Positions 15,048 through 42,238 of a DNA stretch of 64,000 nt are shown piece by piece. The translations under genes were made by a program, and so were the position numbers. Position 1 is the stretch's first letter; the number at the start of each line of letters is the position of its first letter. The notes beneath the pieces were generated by a model that made no database searches, was not told where the DNA came from, and saw only the letters and a program-made list of their open reading frames with translations. This DNA is from Candidatus Kerfeldbacteria bacterium (lineage in GTDB: Bacteria; Patescibacteriota; Patescibacteriia; SBBC01; CAIJZX01), in NCBI GenBank assembly GCA_016193315.1, contig JACPSJ010000001.1:471478-535477 (forward strand), given 5' to 3'.

Positions 15048-15637
15048 TGGCGACCACGAACCGGCAGAAGTTCGCCACCGGCAACGTTGTTGTTCAAAGA
15101 TTGATCAACCGTTTTCACCATCAGATCAGCAACTTGGTGGCCGAGCTTCAGCCACAGAATATCTTGGAAGTCGGCTGTGGCGAAGGATTCCTGCTCGATG
15201 TTCTCCACCGGCGCCTGCCGGAGGTGCCAATCTTGGGTTTGGACAACAGTCAGGACGCCCTGTCTGATGGGCATCGATTATTTCCCGATCTGCCGCTCGA
15301 GTTTGGTGATATCTACCACCTGGTGCAACCCGACCGCAGTTGGGATGTGGTGGTGGCCAGTGAAGTTCTCGAACACCTCGACCGACCGAACGAAGCCTTA
15401 GCCGAACTACACCGGGTCGCCCAACGCTATGTTGTGCTGTCGGTGCCCTGGGAACCGTGGTTTCAACTTGGATCGCTGGCCCGGGGCAAGCATCTGCAAC
15501 GCTGGGGTAACCATCCCGAACATCTTAACCGCTGGAATCCGGTCACCTTTCGTCGCTTGGTCAGCCAGCGCCTGGTTGTAGAACGGATGTCCACGCAATC
15601 TTCGTTCCCATGGATGATCGTGGTGGCCAGGGTGTAG
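15047..15637 (+). CDS. Class I SAM-dependent methyltransferase
   Basis: ILEVGCGEGFLL (motif I) ... VVASEVLEHL. TAATG overlap with the upstream GT2. Confidence 0.7.
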   Translation: MATTNRQKFATGNVVVQRLINRFHHQISNLVAELQPQNILEVGCGEGFLLDVLHRRLPEVPILGLDNSQDALSDGHRLFPDLPLEFGDIYHLVQPDRSWDVVVASEVLEHLDRPNEALAELHRVAQRYVVLSVPWEPWFQLGSLARGKHLQRWGNHPEHLNRWNPVTFRRLVSQRLVVERMSTQSSFPWMIVVARV

Positions 15638-16506
15638 GCTGGTCTCGGTTATTCGGCTGGGGGCTGGCGGTGCTGGCCCTGTGGTTTGTTTTTCGTTGGC
15701 TACGCGGCGTTGATCCGCTGGTCTGGCAGCAGTTTCAGTCGCTTGAGGTTACCTCGGTGCTCATCTCTTTCGTTCTGTTCCAGGGCTGGTTTGTATTGCG
15801 GTACCTGGGCTGGGAATTTATCAGCCGTCGCTATGGATTGGATAGCCAGCGTGCATCGAACCTGCGGATGTGGACCCTGAGTGAATTGATGCGGTACATC
15901 CCGGGGAATGTCTGGTCCTTCGCCGCGCGATATCGCGGCGCCAAGGAGCGGGGGACGGGCCGCCGCGGCGCGGCTGTATCCTTAGTGGTCGAAGCGTCGA
16001 ATCTTGTTGCCGGAGCAGCCTTGGTAGCGGCCGTTTTTTGGCGTCCGGAGTGGTGGCTACTGTGGCTATTGGCAGCCGGGGTGTTTGTCACCATCTGGCC
16101 GTGGCTGGTGCGTCGCTTAGCCAGTTGGCGGAAATGGGAATTCCCAAAACCACTGTCATACCGTGATAGCGTGGTGCTCCTGGGAGTCTACCTGGCGGTG
16201 TGGTTGCTCTACGGCCTAGCGCAAGCCATCATCATCTTGTCGATTCCAGGGCTGTCGACTCCGGGCTTGACGTTTCTTCTGGGCATCAATGTCACTGCCT
16301 GGCTGATCGGCTACGTCAGCGTGATCACGCCGATGGGCTTGGGCGTGCGGGAAGTGGCCTTTGTGACATTGCTCAAAAACACGATTGCCCCCGGGGTCGG
16401 CAGCATGCTGGCCGTCCTGACACGTGTCTGGCTCGTGGTGTGTGAACTGGCTTTTCTCGGCCTAGTCACGATTTTCACCAGTCGTCGTCCGGGGTCACTT
16501 GAATAA
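15610..16506 (+). CDS. Lysylphosphatidylglycerol-synthase-TM-like / flippase-like membrane protein (UPF0104)
   Basis: Polytopic membrane protein with the YIPGNVWSFAARY motif characteristic of the LPG_synthase_TM family. Confidence 0.6.
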   Translation: MDDRGGQGVGWSRLFGWGLAVLALWFVFRWLRGVDPLVWQQFQSLEVTSVLISFVLFQGWFVLRYLGWEFISRRYGLDSQRASNLRMWTLSELMRYIPGNVWSFAARYRGAKERGTGRRGAAVSLVVEASNLVAGAALVAAVFWRPEWWLLWLLAAGVFVTIWPWLVRRLASWRKWEFPKPLSYRDSVVLLGVYLAVWLLYGLAQAIIILSIPGLSTPGLTFLLGINVTAWLIGYVSVITPMGLGVREVAFVTLLKNTIAPGVGSMLAVLTRVWLVVCELAFLGLVTIFTSRRPGSLE

Positions 16507-20109: not shown

Positions 20110-20538
20110 ATGGTCGCGAATCAAGATTTTGATCATCGCTTGACCATTGTCGCCCGGCCAGACCTACCATCGTGGCAGAGCATGAACGCGGTGGCTCATG
20201 TGGCGGCCTACCTGGGCCATCAGATGACCGATCGTTTTGATACGGGTGAATGGTTCGTCACCAAGGATGGCATTCGCCTGCCGCGCAACACTCAGTACGC
20301 GATTATTATTCTTCGGGCTGACCGGCAGCGGGTCAATGATTTTTTGGAGCCAGCGCAAGAACACGATCTTATCCACCTCGGACTCGTTCGGGACATGATC
20401 GACACGACCAATGATCAAGAAATTGAAATAATCCTCAGCCACAAGTCGGCGACGGATGTTGAATACCTAGCCGTCGGGGCGTTTGCGCCGAACGACCGGC
20501 TCAAAAAAATAACTTTTGGGCTCGCTTTATGGAAATAG
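20110..20538 (+). CDS. DUF2000-like small protein
   Basis: 142-aa ORF whose pattern resembles DUF2000 family proteins (weak recall-based assignment). Confidence 0.4.
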   Translation: MVANQDFDHRLTIVARPDLPSWQSMNAVAHVAAYLGHQMTDRFDTGEWFVTKDGIRLPRNTQYAIIILRADRQRVNDFLEPAQEHDLIHLGLVRDMIDTTNDQEIEIILSHKSATDVEYLAVGAFAPNDRLKKITFGLALWK

Positions 20539-20837
20539 CGAAACCACCGTCCCGAACGCTCTACCTGGCTCTGACGATGCTCCTCGGCGTCACCGTCAGT
20601 TATGGCCTCCACGCCCTGATCGAACTGTGGTACCTATCCTGGGCGCAAAATACGGGTCGCCTGATCACCTGGACCCGCCACCTCGGAATCGGACTGTGTG
20701 CCTTACCGCGGTGGCTCCAATACGGTTTACTCGCCGCTGGATTGGTCGGCGGGTTCCTGACTGGTCGAGTCTGGTGGCGCTGGGTGTATGGGGAAGGGCG
20801 GCGGTGGCCCAGGCGGAAAATGGTAGGCACCCCATGA
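20529..20837 (+). CDS. Small 2-TM membrane protein
   Basis: 102-aa ORF with two hydrophobic helices. ATGA overlap with the downstream HAD gene. The alternative reading (N-terminal extension of HAD) looks non-coding. Confidence 0.45.
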   Translation: MEIAKPPSRTLYLALTMLLGVTVSYGLHALIELWYLSWAQNTGRLITWTRHLGIGLCALPRWLQYGLLAAGLVGGFLTGRVWWRWVYGEGRRWPRRKMVGTP

Positions 20838-24809: not shown

Positions 24810-24989
24810 ACTAGGGCTCCTCAGCCAGACTAGGAGAAGTCGATGTTTATGGGCCGGCGGCGCTGAACCCCAAGGTTTGCGAAGTATCAGCAACTTGACA
24901 GCATCTTGCGCTTGTGCTGCGGTTTTTTTATAATCCAATTTAACCACTCGAATTTACGAATTTTTAGCTTATTCCTTAACCCTCGCCAT

Positions 24990-25772
24990 ATGAAACACAC
25001 TTCTATAGGAGTAGCCATTAGCCTGGCCGCGTTGGCAGTGTTCGCATTTGCCACCGCGGCTTCAGCCAATCACAGCTGGGGTCCGCCGTACCACTGGGCC
25101 AGGACGAGTAACCCGTTCACCCTTAAGGTTGGCGATAACGTTTCATCTAGCTGGGATTTTTATTTAGACACCGCGATCGCTGATTGGAGCCAGTCGAGTG
25201 TTCTCGACATGACGAAGGTGGCTGGCGGCACGCGACCAAAGACTTGCCGCCCGACTGCTGGTCGGGTTGAAAGCTGCAGCGCGAGGTATGGCAACACCGG
25301 CTGGCTCGGCATCGCCCAGATCTGGATCACCGGCGGCGAACACATCACCCAAGGCGTGGTGAAAGTCAACGACTATTACTTCAGCCAGCCATACTATAAT
25401 ACCGCCGGTTGGCGAAGTTTGGTGATGTGCCAGGAGCCTGGTCATACCCTAGGCCTTGGCCACCAGGACGAGAATTTCAACAACGACCCGATTCAGCCGC
25501 ACACCTGCATGGATTATTTCATCCCGGAGGCAAATGAAATTGTCCATCCGAACCAGCATGACTACGAGCAGCTGGAAGACATCTACAGCCACCTCGATAC
25601 CACCACCACGATTAGTCAAGCGGCTACCAGCCCGAGGTCATGGCAGTCAGCCCAGGCACCGCGCGAGTGGGGTCGAGAAATCCACCGTTCGCCTGATGGT
25701 CAGGCTTCAGTCTTCGTTCGTGATCTCGGTCTCGGTCGGAGGATTGTAACGCACGTCTTCTGGGCGGAATAA
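24990..25772 (+). CDS. Secreted zincin-like metallopeptidase-like protein with a degenerate QExxHxxGxxH motif
   Basis: Signal peptide MKHTSIGVAISLAALAVFAFATAASA. Motif CQEPGHTLGLGHQDE resembles the astacin/serralysin/snapalysin HExxHxxGxxH with the first His replaced by Gln. Confidence 0.55.
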   Translation: MKHTSIGVAISLAALAVFAFATAASANHSWGPPYHWARTSNPFTLKVGDNVSSSWDFYLDTAIADWSQSSVLDMTKVAGGTRPKTCRPTAGRVESCSARYGNTGWLGIAQIWITGGEHITQGVVKVNDYYFSQPYYNTAGWRSLVMCQEPGHTLGLGHQDENFNNDPIQPHTCMDYFIPEANEIVHPNQHDYEQLEDIYSHLDTTTTISQAATSPRSWQSAQAPREWGREIHRSPDGQASVFVRDLGLGRRIVTHVFWAE

Positions 25773-25797
25773 CGCTTCTGAGCTGAACAGTAGAGAA

Positions 25798-25830
25798 AGA
25801 ACACCCCGCTGGGGTGTTCTTTCGGTTTTT
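25798..25830. terminator. Rho-independent terminator (possibly bidirectional)
   Basis: agaacacccc-gctg-ggggtgttct 10-bp stem followed by ttcggttttt. Lies between convergent genes. Confidence 0.7.
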
Positions 25831-26664: not shown

Positions 26665-27522
26665 ATGAAGACGGTATTTTTCGCCTCGCTACTGGCCCTC
26701 CTCGCTTGGACGCAAGCCTCGGCCCAGCCGGCTTACTATTTTCAATTTTTTAATTTCGAAACCAACAATTACACCGAATCCTTCCCTTTCGGCCATTCCA
26801 ACGAGGTCGTCGTCGCCAGCCAGGGGCAGGACGTTCGGCAGCAACTGCCGATCGACTTGTCAATGTCGGTCAATGGTCAGCAAAGATGGACGTCAACTAT
26901 TGCCAACAACCCGACCCAGAACTGCCGCGGCGCGGATGGCTGCTCCACCCGCGGGCCAGTGACGGATGATCCCGGCGCGACTGCTTTCGTCGAGCTGACC
27001 GCCAAGGGTAAGGACGGTCAGACCATCGCCACTTACACCCGTGGCAACCGACCGACAAACACAGCGGTTACCAACCAGCCGACGACTTCAACAAACCGGA
27101 CCACCACCACGAACCGGACGACACCAGCCACGCCGACCACGTCAACAACCAATCGCACCACGGTCACTACCCAGCCGACGTCCACCAGCCAACAAGCGGA
27201 CACGAGCTGGCACCGGCGATGGTGGGAGGTTGGTTTCTGGGTCGGGATTTTCTGGCTCTTCCCCTGGGTCTTTGTCGGCTGGCAATGGACCAGATACAGG
27301 TTCTGGGGTTTTGGCTGGCCGTGGCCATGGTGGTTCTGGATTCCGCTGTGGTGGTTTATCCCGTGGTTTATCATCGGCTGGATCTGGTGGCTTGACTGGT
27401 GGCCGTGGTGGATGTGGTGGTGGTGGCTGTTCCCCTGGATTTTCTGGCTGTTCTGGTGGATTATCCTGTTCAAAGAAGCCATGATCTGGCATTGGCGCCA
27501 GAACCAAAGCGGGAACAGATGA
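26665..27522 (+). CDS. Secreted protein with Thr-rich linker and extraordinarily tryptophan-rich hydrophobic C-terminal region
   Basis: Signal peptide MKTVFFASLLALLAWTQASAQP. Linker TNRTTTTNRTTPATPTTSTTNRTTVTT. Final 104 aa contain 34 Trp (WPWPWWFWIPLWWFIPWFIIGWIWWLDWWPWWMWWWW ...). Confidence 0.6.
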   Translation: MKTVFFASLLALLAWTQASAQPAYYFQFFNFETNNYTESFPFGHSNEVVVASQGQDVRQQLPIDLSMSVNGQQRWTSTIANNPTQNCRGADGCSTRGPVTDDPGATAFVELTAKGKDGQTIATYTRGNRPTNTAVTNQPTTSTNRTTTTNRTTPATPTTSTTNRTTVTTQPTSTSQQADTSWHRRWWEVGFWVGIFWLFPWVFVGWQWTRYRFWGFGWPWPWWFWIPLWWFIPWFIIGWIWWLDWWPWWMWWWWLFPWIFWLFWWIILFKEAMIWHWRQNQSGNR

Positions 27523-27737: not shown

Positions 27738-28010
27738 ATGTCACCTTGGTGGCGGAAAGGACTGTTTATGCCACCGTATGTGACGAAAGAACATTTCAAC
27801 GCCACTATGGATCAGTTTCGAAGAGATTTTTTTTCGAGCCATGAATTTCAGAGCACGATCAATAATCTTCCAAACGACCTGATGACAAAGATGGACGGAA
27901 CGTCTGTCATCCTTCAGCGCCTTGACCAGGAGCGCGTTTTAACGATCGAATGGATCCGCCGGATCGAAGGCGATCTATCAATGGTCAAGCAGCGTCTGAA
28001 GATAGCCTAA
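27738..28010 (+). CDS. Hypothetical small protein
   Basis: 90-aa ORF with ATG start, followed by a strong terminator. Confidence 0.4.
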   Translation: MSPWWRKGLFMPPYVTKEHFNATMDQFRRDFFSSHEFQSTINNLPNDLMTKMDGTSVILQRLDQERVLTIEWIRRIEGDLSMVKQRLKIA

Positions 28011-28030
28011 GGACCGCGGCCGGTGATTTG

Positions 28031-28051
28031 GCGCCCAAGCGGGCGTTTTTT
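28031..28051 (+). terminator. Rho-independent terminator
   Basis: cgccc-aagc-gggcg stem followed by tttttt. Confidence 0.65.
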
Positions 28052-28065
28052 GCTATACTTGGGAC

Positions 28066-29214
28066 GTGAAACCAACAACCAAAACTATTCTCATCGCAAT
28101 CCTGGTGGTGCTTATCCTCGGTGCAACAGCGTGGTGGCTTTTCTTCAACGGCAACTCAGCGGTTTCTGATCTGCCGCTGGTCAAAAACTTCCTTCAGCAA
28201 CGCGTCGATGCCGCGTTCAAGCCGGTAAACTGCCCGAATATACCACGAACCTTCCCGGCCGGCGCATATACTGGACCGCTGTATGACATGCATGTCCACA
28301 TGGCCGCCATCCCGGACGGACCGCCAGGAAGTCCGGTCGACCCGGGCGAGGGGCTGGCCCTCGGTATCAATACCTCGGTCGAGGACTACATCTGCATGAT
28401 GGACGTGGAGGGGACGCCGAAGGCCCTGGTCTTCTTTCCGGTTTGGGATCCGGTGCGCAAGCAAATGCTCGACGTGGTGAAACGAACCATGCAGAAATAT
28501 CCTGATCGTTTCATTCCGTTCATCATGCCGCCGGCCGATGACGGCTCGCCGACCGGTTTCCCGACGGTCGATGCCAAAACGCTCGAGGACATGCTCAGCG
28601 TGTATCCCGGACTGTTCCGCGGCTACGGTGAAATTGGCTTGTATGCACGCGACGGCGGCGCGCCGGAACTCAAACCTGATGCTCAGCGACTGTTGGACAT
28701 CTATCCGGTCATCCGGCAGCACAAACTCATCGCCTACTTCCACCTCGGGCAGGGGCAGAAAGACGAATTTGAAAAGATCCTCGAACAGAACCCTGGCATC
28801 ACCTTTATTTTTCACGGCGACCAGTTGGTCGAAGATGCTGGCGGCGGAGACAATTTGCAGCTGATTGATGAAATTCTGACCAATCACAAAAATGTGTATT
28901 ATGGCGTGGATGAACTCTATGGCGACGTCTGGCTGCTCCGTCGCGGAGTCAGCAAAGAAACATTCTTGACGCACCTGTCCAATCCTGAACCGTTGCTGGA
29001 GAAAGACTTGAAGACCTGGCGGGGGTTCATCGAGAAGCATCCGGACCAGGTACTATGGGACACGGATCGCGGCGGCGACGCTCGTTGGTCGCTTGATACC
29101 GATGTGGCGCTGGCGCTGAACGACTACAGCCGCATGTTTATTGGTCGGCTAAGTCCAGAGGTACAGGCGCGGTTCGCCTATCAAAATGCGGGACGACTCA
29201 TTGGTGAACGCTAG
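28066..29214 (+). CDS. Membrane-anchored metal-dependent amidohydrolase (TIM-barrel, Amidohydro_2-like)
   Basis: N-terminal TM anchor. YDMHVHM (HxH metal-binding motif). Later conserved His/Asp pattern. GTG start with TATACT immediately upstream. Confidence 0.6.
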   Translation: MKPTTKTILIAILVVLILGATAWWLFFNGNSAVSDLPLVKNFLQQRVDAAFKPVNCPNIPRTFPAGAYTGPLYDMHVHMAAIPDGPPGSPVDPGEGLALGINTSVEDYICMMDVEGTPKALVFFPVWDPVRKQMLDVVKRTMQKYPDRFIPFIMPPADDGSPTGFPTVDAKTLEDMLSVYPGLFRGYGEIGLYARDGGAPELKPDAQRLLDIYPVIRQHKLIAYFHLGQGQKDEFEKILEQNPGITFIFHGDQLVEDAGGGDNLQLIDEILTNHKNVYYGVDELYGDVWLLRRGVSKETFLTHLSNPEPLLEKDLKTWRGFIEKHPDQVLWDTDRGGDARWSLDTDVALALNDYSRMFIGRLSPEVQARFAYQNAGRLIGER

Positions 29215-29373
29215 CTCCGGTCCCAAATAACAAATCCCAAGGAAGCCCCAATAACCGAAATTCGAATGATCAAAATATATTTTCGAGCAAAAAGTATTTC
29301 GGTCATTTGATGATTGGTTATTCGGACTTGTTTGGAATTTGGTGCTGGGCATTTGGGATTTAATTGAGTATGT

Positions 29374-40825: not shown

Positions 40826-42238
40826 ATGGACGATCGAGCGAAGATACTCTACCGGTGGACGATGGTAGCAGTCGGGGCGGCGGAATTGCTATCCTGGTTG
40901 GCCTTCCGTTTGGGATTGATGGTACCGATTACCAGTTTGGTTATCGCCTTCGTCTGGTGGTTAGCCTGGCGATGGCCGAAGTGGTTGTCCCTGGTCAGCC
41001 TGGTGGAGCTGGTGATTGGGGGCAAGGGGTACTTGTTCTGGCTCGATCTCTCCGGCTCAGTTAGTCTTCACATCCCAATTCGGATGATTGTGTTTTCGGT
41101 CTTGCTCGTGGCCACGGCCGTGTCGTGGTACCGTGAGAAGAGGTGGCCATGGCCGACCAGAGCGTTCATGCCGGCCGCGGTCCTGCTGCTGTGGGTCATC
41201 ATCATGACTGGCTGGGGACTGGCTGTCGGCCATGGCCTGTCGACCACCTATCAGGATGCCAACGCGTGGGGGTACCTGTTGATTCTGCCGTGCTGGTGGT
41301 TTTGGTGGCGGAAACAACCAGGCTGGCAATCGCTCATCCTGACCGTGCTGCTGGCTGGCGTGACCACGGTGGCGATCAAAACGTGGGTTGTCCAGGTACT
41401 GTTTAATCACCTCTCGGCGCCAACACTCGAAACGTTCTACCGCTGGATCCGACAAACTGGCATCGGCGAAATCACGCACCTCAGCGGGCCGCTCTACCGA
41501 GTCTTCTTCCAAAGCCATCTTTACCTCTTGCTCGGCTTGCTCCTGACGGTCAGCGGCTGGCTGTTTGGCCGAGCCCCGCGGTGGTGGCTGTGGCCGATGA
41601 TTGCTAGCGGGGTTGGCCTTTACCTGAGCCTATCCCGCAGCCTGTGGTTGGGAGTAGCCGGCGGGGGAGTCGTCCTCCTCTACCAGTTTTTGCAAGCCCG
41701 TCGCAGTCTGTCTGCCTGGCGGGTGATATGGCTCCTGCCGCTAGCCATCGCCATCTGGCTACTGTCGTCGTGGGCGGTTAACTTCCCGTACGTGCTCAGC
41801 CCGGTCGGCGCCCCCCGCCCGTCAAGCGCAGTCATTGCCCGTCTATACTCTCCCGGTTCACAACAGGCAGCCAGTGCCCGGGCCAATCAATTTCGGCCGC
41901 TGATCCAAGCCATCAGGCAACAACCGCTGACCGGACATGGTTTCGGCACGACCGTCCGTTACTACAGTACCGACCCACGGGTGAAGGGCTGGCGGACGAC
42001 GTTTGCCTTTGAACTCGGTTATCTCGATCTATGGTTAAAATTTGGTATCATCGGGCTCGGATTGCTGAGCTGGTGGGTGTGGTCGATCAGGCAAAACCTC
42101 CGGCGCACCAAATGGTATCCGTGGCTGTGGGGCGGGGTAATTGCGATTCTCGTGACCCACCTGACTACTCCCTATCTTAATCATCCACTCGGGCTGGGCT
42201 GGCTAGCCTTGGTCACTGTTTATGCGTCCGATCAGTGA
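40826..42238 (+). CDS. O-antigen ligase / polymerase-like membrane protein (Wzy_C family)
   Basis: Polytopic membrane protein with the Wzy_C hallmark LYLSLSRSLWLGVAGG. Confidence 0.7.
   Translation: MDDRAKILYRWTMVAVGAAELLSWLAFRLGLMVPITSLVIAFVWWLAWRWPKWLSLVSLVELVIGGKGYLFWLDLSGSVSLHIPIRMIVFSVLLVATAVSWYREKRWPWPTRAFMPAAVLLLWVIIMTGWGLAVGHGLSTTYQDANAWGYLLILPCWWFWWRKQPGWQSLILTVLLAGVTTVAIKTWVVQVLFNHLSAPTLETFYRWIRQTGIGEITHLSGPLYRVFFQSHLYLLLGLLLTVSGWLFGRAPRWWLWPMIASGVGLYLSLSRSLWLGVAGGGVVLLYQFLQARRSLSAWRVIWLLPLAIAIWLLSSWAVNFPYVLSPVGAPRPSSAVIARLYSPGSQQAASARANQFRPLIQAIRQQPLTGHGFGTTVRYYSTDPRVKGWRTTFAFELGYLDLWLKFGIIGLGLLSWWVWSIRQNLRRTKWYPWLWGGVIAILVTHLTTPYLNHPLGLGWLALVTVYASDQ

Follow-up and report, generated by a model that had tools for sequence, protein, structure and literature searches.

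The stretch of DNA analysed here, 64,000 nucleotides of the metagenome-assembled genome of an ultra-small groundwater bacterium, Candidatus Kerfeldbacteria (in the following, the window), contains a gene for a 285-residue protein in whose C-terminal region about one residue in three is tryptophan. The product of this open reading frame (ORF; Table 1) is identical to MBI2984506.1 (HYY50_02680), the "hypothetical protein" called by NCBI on an 857-kb contig. Translation of positions 27208-27519 gave 104 residues (182-285) with 34 Trp, 13 Phe, 10 Ile, 7 Pro, 7 Gly and 6 Leu, in exact agreement with the tryptophan count of an earlier note made from the letters of the window, and the string WPWPWWFWIPLWWFIPWFIIGWIWWLDWWPWWMWWWWLFPWIFWLFWW quoted there is present. 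In the window's other long ORFs, 56 in number, Trp accounts for 2.0% of the residues; on that background, 34 or more Trp among 104 residues have a binomial probability of about 1e-31, and the next-richest stretches of 104 residues, in any frame, hold at most 12. Over the whole protein, Trp amounts to 12.6% (36 Trp codons), and as many as four TGG codons follow each other directly.

Structure prediction was performed with AlphaFold2 using the family alignment (mean predicted local distance difference test score (pLDDT) 78.6), and the model matched the order given in the earlier note, i.e. signal peptide, globular domain of about 110 residues, Thr-rich linker and Trp-rich tail. A hydrophobic N-terminal segment equivalent to the signal peptide is present in every full-length relative. 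The ectodomain resembles Ig-like, E-set and macroglobulin (MG) beta-sandwiches at 5-15% identity and without a sequence-level family match, a likeness that is fold-level only and functionally uninformative. The Trp-rich module was modelled as three helices with pLDDT values of 67-86, and the tail folded alone yielded the same three helices, with FWGFGWPWPWW as a non-helical segment between them. Helix 1 carries a near-invariant GxxxG (G190, G194), a central FPW and the motif FVGWQW, and is followed by the basic loop TRYRF; W222, at the start of helix 2, completes the FWGFGWPWPWW motif.

For the analysis of internal repeats, segments A, B and C of the module were aligned with hhalign and the scores compared to those of column shuffles. 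A against B scored 34 (shuffles 11.2 +/- 2.5, 0 of 100 reaching 34) and A against C 17.5 (shuffles 10.0 +/- 1.8, 0 of 100 reaching 17.5); the score of B against C was no different from that of the shuffled controls. The unit common to the segments comprises about 30 residues with a central proline and reads W-x-[FI]-P-W-x-[FI]-[VI]-G-W-Q-W.

Table 1. Coordinates and properties of the tryptophan-rich gene and of the parts of its product. Loop charges are family means.
Feature	Position (strand)	Residues	Evidence and remarks
Whole gene	26665..27522 (+)	285 and stop codon	ATG start
Probable Sec signal peptide	26665..26724 (+)	1-20	MKTVFFASLLALLAWTQASA followed by QP, with A-x-A (ASA) before Gln21; by eye and AlphaFold2 helix 2-14
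Ectodomain	26728..27054 (+)	22-130	Ig-like beta-sandwich, pLDDT 92-98; conserved Cys pair (NCRGADGCSTRGP)
Disordered Thr/Pro/Asn-rich stalk	27055..27201 (+)	131-179	pLDDT <50 for 141-179; three non-conserved NRT sequons
Conserved Trp-rich module	27208..27495 (+)	182-277	Family-defining; alignment, column statistics, profile search, purifying selection
Helix 1	27202..27297 (+)	180-211	AlphaFold2, hydrophobicity, charges, conservation; predicted to run from outside to cytoplasm
Loop 1 (TRYRF)			K+R 1.83, D+E 0
Non-helical FWGFGWPWPW	27298..27327 (+)	212-221	AlphaFold2; invariant or nearly invariant columns; predicted on the cytoplasmic side
Helix 2 (WWFWIPLWWFIPWFIIGWI)	27328..27384 (+)	222-240	AlphaFold2; two invariant prolines; repeats the helix-1 unit
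Short outer loop (WWLDW)	27385..27399 (+)	241-245	No basic residues, often acidic
Loop 2 (WLDWW), the short outer loop above			K+R 0, D+E 0.46
Helix 3 (WPWWMWWWWLFPWIFWLFWWIILF)	27400..27510 (+)	246-282	AlphaFold2, charges; continues into K270-E271 (invariant) and a basic tail on the cytoplasmic side, KEAMIWHWRQ
C-terminal tail (KEAMIWHWRRRK-like)			K+R 3.72, D+E 1.35

Reading frame, conservation and distribution of the family

A database search with the full protein, as proposed in the earlier note, returned 49 homologues, and profile searches and DNA-pattern scans brought the total to about 57 in genomes and metagenomes. With one exception (P0048), all share the tryptophan frame. For codon comparison, 101 tail codons were aligned between the window and five other loci (15 locus pairs). 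Differences fell mostly on third positions (e.g. 20/14/40), and conserved residues other than Trp and Met were encoded by different codons in 42-78% of cases per pair (mean about 60%), which indicates that the loci have long been diverging and that purifying selection acts on this frame. The homologues and the codon-position pattern thus establish the frame chosen in the earlier note as the true coding frame.

There is next to no chance that the tail is an artefact, i.e. a mis-assembled simple repeat or a wrong frame whose true product would be Gly-rich or Pro-rich. Several other frames are indeed open over the Trp-rich DNA: one ORF rich in Gly and Arg spans 27041-27484 (+), another rich in Pro 27142-27507 (-), and a third rich in His 27033-27482 (-). 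The Gly-rich and Pro-rich shadow ORFs listed in the earlier note are real, and such openings are the expected by-product of TGG-rich DNA. The tryptophan frame, however, is the one in which coding runs on unbroken from the upstream part of the ORF, and it is held in more than 50 independent assemblies with third-position-dominated divergence. Tandem Repeats Finder reported just a weak 30-nucleotide stretch of TGG periodicity (70% matches, score 32), and direct DNA repeats in the gene are limited to short in-frame recurrences of a WLFPW-type unit; the Trp-rich DNA is not a collapsed or simple repeat. P0048 (also locus L053) switches from the tryptophan frame to the Gly-rich frame in the middle of the module (…WQWWLVWGGGGVGRRG…), which counts in favour of an artefact, but it is alone in doing so, and both similarity and conservation are lost from the shift onward; a frameshift or assembly error, or a pseudogene, is likely. 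It illustrates how a call in the wrong frame would appear. Of the outcomes that the earlier note had named as fatal to its reading, neither an assembly artefact or collapsed repeat nor a set of relatives in another frame was found.

In an alignment of 46 sequences (A1), the module is almost free of gaps, with 21 invariant columns (14 of them Trp) and a mean column identity of 70%; Trp is the majority residue in 33 columns and occurs in at least 90% of the sequences in 28 of these. Proteins sharing the ectodomain of the query agree pairwise, on average, at 69% of the module positions and still at 58% in its non-Trp columns, as against 59% for the ectodomain and 28% for the linker or stalk. The three NRT sequons reported in the earlier note were located in TNRTTTTNRTTPATPTTSTTNRTTVTT of the query and are not conserved in the relatives. 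Nor does the tail generally expand and contract among relatives, as had been considered, since it is ungapped in 46 of 49. Two predicted five-helix variants with a query-type ectodomain (P0023 and P0055) have an insertion in the module, about 60 residues long, which adds two hydrophobic segments and a basic loop; P0055 contains two copies of the unit of loop plus helix 2 (RWPxPxWFxxPxxWFxPW), and a further helix separates them.

The conservation of the non-Trp columns also bears on a further explanation, according to which the extreme Trp content would tie translation of the 36 Trp codons, many of them adjacent, to the supply of tryptophan, possibly from a host, in addition to a structural role. 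Genomes of the candidate phyla radiation (CPR) usually lack amino-acid biosynthesis. The overall Trp content and the runs of TGG codons described above suit this idea, and under tryptophan starvation of Chlamydia, proteins high in Trp fall in abundance (PMC5141270). Trp and non-Trp positions of the module are, however, both conserved, which points to selection on a folded protein beyond codon content, and the activity of the protein itself would be left unexplained; we regard such gating as quite improbable.

At least three unrelated types of N-terminal region precede the module. The commonest lacks a globular domain and consists of a Q/T/P-rich stretch and a short coiled coil; further types are a beta-sandwich like that of the query and one or two MG2/emp24-like beta-sandwiches. 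It is the module, not the ectodomain, that defines the family. The family is rare. A HMMER profile search of 1.84 billion representatives clustered at 50% identity gave 13 clusters, all at E<=1e-10. DNA collections were scanned with an exact degenerate pattern for WPWPWWFW, so that the following counts are lower bounds: GTDB species representatives contained 4 true members (three Saccharibacteria and one Woesebacteria), 241 million metagenome records contained 22-24, on contigs of 31-56% GC and including 0.1-um groundwater fractions, and 2.9 million viral contigs contained none. The relatives of named source are almost all Patescibacteria (Saccharibacteria, Woesebacteria). Their database names are "hypothetical protein" throughout, except for the MG2-type subgroup, which is labelled emp24/p24 after its N-terminal domain.

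Scans against Pfam-A and NCBIfam gave no family at E<=1 for the full protein and none at E<=10 for the tail alone or the family consensus, sequence or profile similarity of the module to chains of the PDB was not found, and full-text literature searches, literal motif strings included, did not yield a description of the family; the earlier note, which recognised no described family, was right in this. Far from being a compositional accident of one gene, the Trp-rich tail is a domain that is conserved, repeated internally and hitherto undescribed.

Some members of the family deserve separate mention. The MG2/emp24-type members L027 (JAMCVO010000139.1) and L025/L026 come from short contigs with a GC content of 31-37%. 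One MG2-type contig (3.9 kb, 37% GC), on which Flp pilin and TadE genes adjoin, was binned to Actinomycetota, an assignment that looks doubtful. L055 (Ga0209342_10130853) combines a different hydrophobic N-terminal part with the linker and Trp-rich module of a P0013-like protein; chimeric assembly, a frameshift or a genuine further architecture could account for it.

Predicted membrane topology and candidate functions

Tryptophan is the rarest and costliest amino acid, and membrane proteins usually carry it in two narrow interfacial belts. In the module, 28 near-invariant Trp in about 96 residues are kept almost gap-free across Kerfeldbacteria, Saccharibacteria and Woesebacteria and fill three predicted helices end to end, a pattern different from the aromatic-belt-like segment that the earlier note described; indole rings appear to be used here as the bulk material of the predicted membrane helices. 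Summed over 19 residues at a time, from start positions 181-261, Wimley-White octanol free energies ranged from about -9 to -30 kcal/mol; the cores of all three helices are essentially uncharged, and tryptic sites are almost absent from the module. With predicted helices of 32, 19 and 37 residues and a positive-inside charge distribution, the module has the generic properties of integral alpha-helical membrane domains. Given an exported N-terminus, the alternating charges of the loops (Table 1) are those that the positive-inside rule predicts for a three-span protein of N-out/C-in orientation, and the two additional hydrophobic segments of P0023 and P0055 would preserve this parity. From sequence and model, the module is predicted to insert into the membrane in this orientation, and, in correction of the earlier note, the 285-residue protein is probably membrane-tethered and not freely secreted.

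The protein probably ends in a C-terminal helical membrane anchor of unprecedented composition; we know of no characterised membrane protein that is one-third Trp. We think it probable that the module serves as a three-span integral-membrane anchor or assembly module by which small ectodomains are displayed on the surface of CPR bacteria, and among the functions suggested in the earlier note, a membrane anchor fits best. The patescibacterial cell would export the protein via Sec, and the product would stay tethered to the membrane. After cleavage of the signal peptide, the Ig-like beta-sandwich would be held outside the cell on the disordered Thr/Pro-rich stalk, and the last 100 or so residues would cross the membrane as three antiparallel helices, entering from outside and ending in the cytoplasm. 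Internal repetition of the unit of about 30 residues probably gave rise to the module, in which Trp, Phe, Ile and Leu stand in for the usual aliphatic membrane core. It probably packs with itself or with partner helices through GxxxG and stacked indole rings, and the resulting rigid aromatic core would hold variable ectodomains at the cell surface. As the constant part of these proteins, better conserved than the N-terminal regions attached to it, the module appears to be more than a passive anchor: in a surface protein, a passive anchor would not normally be under the strongest constraint, which suggests that the module makes specific contacts in the membrane, by packing or with partners, and has a role beyond anchoring.

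Several points weigh against display by a three-span anchor. The Kyte-Doolittle mean is at most 1.4 over the module, so that classical hydropathy methods would miss the helices; the value is low because this scale rates Trp slightly hydrophilic, and hydropathy-based methods may overlook the module for the same reason. Confidence of the AlphaFold2 model is moderate in the module, and AlphaFold2 tends to make hydrophobic segments helical. Helix 2 could be re-entrant rather than spanning, because its two invariant prolines lie six residues apart and an 11-residue W/P/G segment precedes it. Conservation along the module has no clear one-sided helical periodicity, with Trp on all helix faces, so that a lipid-facing and a packing face are indistinguishable. 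The 28 near-invariant Trp exceed the needs of a simple anchor and leave part of the function unaccounted for. Finally, the gene neighbourhoods of seven homologue loci and the window have nothing in common and give no hint of a pathway.

Known C-terminal sorting signals (LPXTG-sortase, PEP-CTERM-exosortase, PGF-CTERM-archaeosortase and GlyGly-CTERM-rhombosortase) resemble the module in several respects: they stand at the extreme C-terminus of proteins with a signal peptide, follow a Thr/Pro-rich linker, consist of a hydrophobic segment and a subsequent basic cluster, and are attached to diverse N-terminal domains. They are, however, only about 25-35 residues long, with one transmembrane (TM) helix and a short signature motif, whereas the module has about 100 residues, three predicted helices and no such motif, and is far more conserved than sorting signals usually are. 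The NCBIfam CTERM models did not match the protein, and genes for sorting enzymes were absent from the surroundings of 7 homologue loci (+/-4-6 kb, less at contig ends) and from the ORFs scanned in the window.

Tryptophan is common in carbohydrate-binding sites, and the position of the tail at the C-terminus, after a Thr-rich linker, is that of some wall-binding modules, so that the tail might lie outside the membrane and bind cell wall or glycan by aromatic-carbohydrate stacking. We hold this to be very unlikely, as the stretches of 20-25 residues without polar or charged side chains are predicted to be helical and not beta, the charge asymmetry obeys the positive-inside rule, and the Pfam and NCBIfam scans revealed no likeness to WxL, GW, choline-binding or CBM families. 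The charge-free hydrophobic helices and the positive-inside pattern likewise disfavour an antimicrobial, so that neither this nor the wall- or glycan-binder among the earlier suggestions gained support.

A very high fraction of Trp, W-P-W motifs and affinity for membranes are shared between the module and three peptides, namely indolicidin (ILPWKWPWWPWRR) and tritrpticin, which are Trp/Pro-rich and membrane-active, and gramicidin A. They are secreted peptides of 13-15 residues, cationic or non-ribosomal, which work at the interface or form a beta-helix channel; the module, in contrast, has 100 residues, is uncharged and helical, and is tethered to an exported protein. A second analogy is offered by class I fusion proteins, where a coiled coil is followed by a Trp-rich segment leading into the membrane (membrane-proximal external region of HIV gp41; KWPWYIWLGF of coronavirus S2), with local likeness to the module in motifs such as ITNWL... 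and WPW. These viral pre-TM regions contain 4-5 Trp in about 20 residues and a single TM helix, as compared to about 33 Trp and three helices in the module. In one homologue, P0026, residues 44-114 matched positions 450-520 of 521 of the Pfam family CoV_S2 (PF01601) with 16.6 bits (cutoff 40) and E 0.0032, in a region that takes in the coiled coil, the Trp-rich segment and the beginning of helix 1. The query has no such match, neither heptad repeat 1 (HR1) nor a fusion peptide is visible in the family ectodomains of 60-250 residues, and the match is probably compositional or convergent, an analogy and a lead but not homology.

CPR bacteria are thought to rely on host cells for lipids, and by these analogies the module could be a membrane-active device that perturbs, bridges or fuses membranes at the contact between episymbiont and host, as viral Trp-rich regions or Trp/Pro-rich antimicrobial peptides do. 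In most members a short coiled coil (LQNxVxxLExQ) directly precedes the NW-x-x-WWW start of the module; the CoV_S2 match of P0026 covers the end of that family that comprises heptad repeat 2, pre-TM and TM regions, and another member weakly matches Trimer_CC. The motif WPWPWW resembles WPWWPW, the core of indolicidin, and the conservation of the module above that of the ectodomain argues for an active role. On the other hand, the CoV_S2 match occurs in 1 of 47 proteins, below the cutoff, and is not significant after multiple testing, the small ectodomains are devoid of fusion-peptide-like or HR1-like elements, and the module does not have the net cationic, amphipathic character of antimicrobial peptides. 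Moreover, three stop-transfer-like helices with a positive-inside pattern would stay in the membrane of the producer. A membrane-active device therefore appears unlikely to us.

Still somewhat less probable is an intramembrane site for binding or transport of a hydrophobic or aromatic ligand (host lipid, quinone, carotenoid, retinal or porphyrin), with the ectodomain capturing or recognising it, loosely after the manner of TspO. Many aromatic side chains are strictly conserved on all helix faces, which suggests a specific packed environment, and lipid-binding beta-sandwiches (RhoGDI, NPC2, MD-1/MD-2, PDE6delta) are among the top Foldseek matches of the ectodomain, with E values of just 4e-3 to 5e-2. 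TspO/MBR, the "tryptophan-rich sensory protein" (PF03073), is a small helical membrane protein with unusually many conserved Trp, as is the module by prediction. In TspO, some 160 residues with somewhat under 10% Trp make up five TM helices, and porphyrins or sterols are bound; the module differs in its three predicted helices and has no Pfam or sequence match to it.

In the broadest form of such proposals, the module would not be a passive anchor but a functional membrane domain of a new type, specific to CPR bacteria (Patescibacteria), namely a self-assembling aromatic core at the interface of symbiont and host that acts in membrane contact, lipid transfer or membrane perturbation and whose synthesis is gated by host tryptophan. 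We rate this as rather unlikely; if true, it would overturn the rule that confines Trp of membrane proteins to interfacial belts. Anchoring or assembly by three membrane spans, which we prefer, would, if an integral membrane domain is confirmed, make the module an extreme natural test of folding and insertion rules, on which the Wimley-White and Kyte-Doolittle scales disagree sharply, and a compact natural scaffold of stacked aromatics, of interest to spectroscopy and protein design. It would also constitute a CPR-specific family of surface proteins, in organisms whose cell-surface biology and host attachment are little understood. As an anchor only, it would be a compositional curiosity in a rare family.

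Other features of the window

The Trp-rich gene is flanked by a strong terminator of the upstream gene (25795-25823, 13-bp stem) on one side and by small unannotated ORFs on the other, and appears to be a stand-alone gene. Directly downstream, a 90-residue ORF without family match (27738-28010 (+)) is followed by a terminator-like hairpin (28030-28047) and could be co-transcribed with it; no obvious counterpart was seen beside the homologues examined, as judged by gene-table size and Pfam only and without sequence comparison. The upstream gene (24906-25772 (+), 288 residues) encodes a protein with a signal-peptide-like N-terminus and the metzincin-like motif CQEPGHTLGLGHQDE, in which Gln replaces the first His of HExxHxxGxxH, and without a Pfam match.

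Second in Trp content within the window is a 470-residue membrane protein similar to Wzy_C/O-antigen ligases (40826-42235 (+), Pfam E 1.2e-11) with 8.3% Trp; the ORFs at 20529-20834 (7.8%) and 15610-16503 (LPG_synthase_TM-like, 6.7%) are also enriched. About 2.5 kb downstream of the Trp-rich gene lies an RTX-type secreted protein of this CPR genome (30061-31788 (+), 576 residues), which contains seven stretches of calcium-binding nonapeptide repeats (HemolysinCabind, E 6e-36) and 0.3% Trp. ARAGORN identified no tRNA or tmRNA genes in the 64 kb. A long hairpin at 29221-29358 is matched weakly, on both strands, by covariance models of plant microRNA precursors (best 34 bits, gathering threshold 136), and probably represents no more than an extended inverted repeat behind the amidohydrolase-like gene (28066-29214). 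Almost all long ORFs of the window lie on the plus strand.

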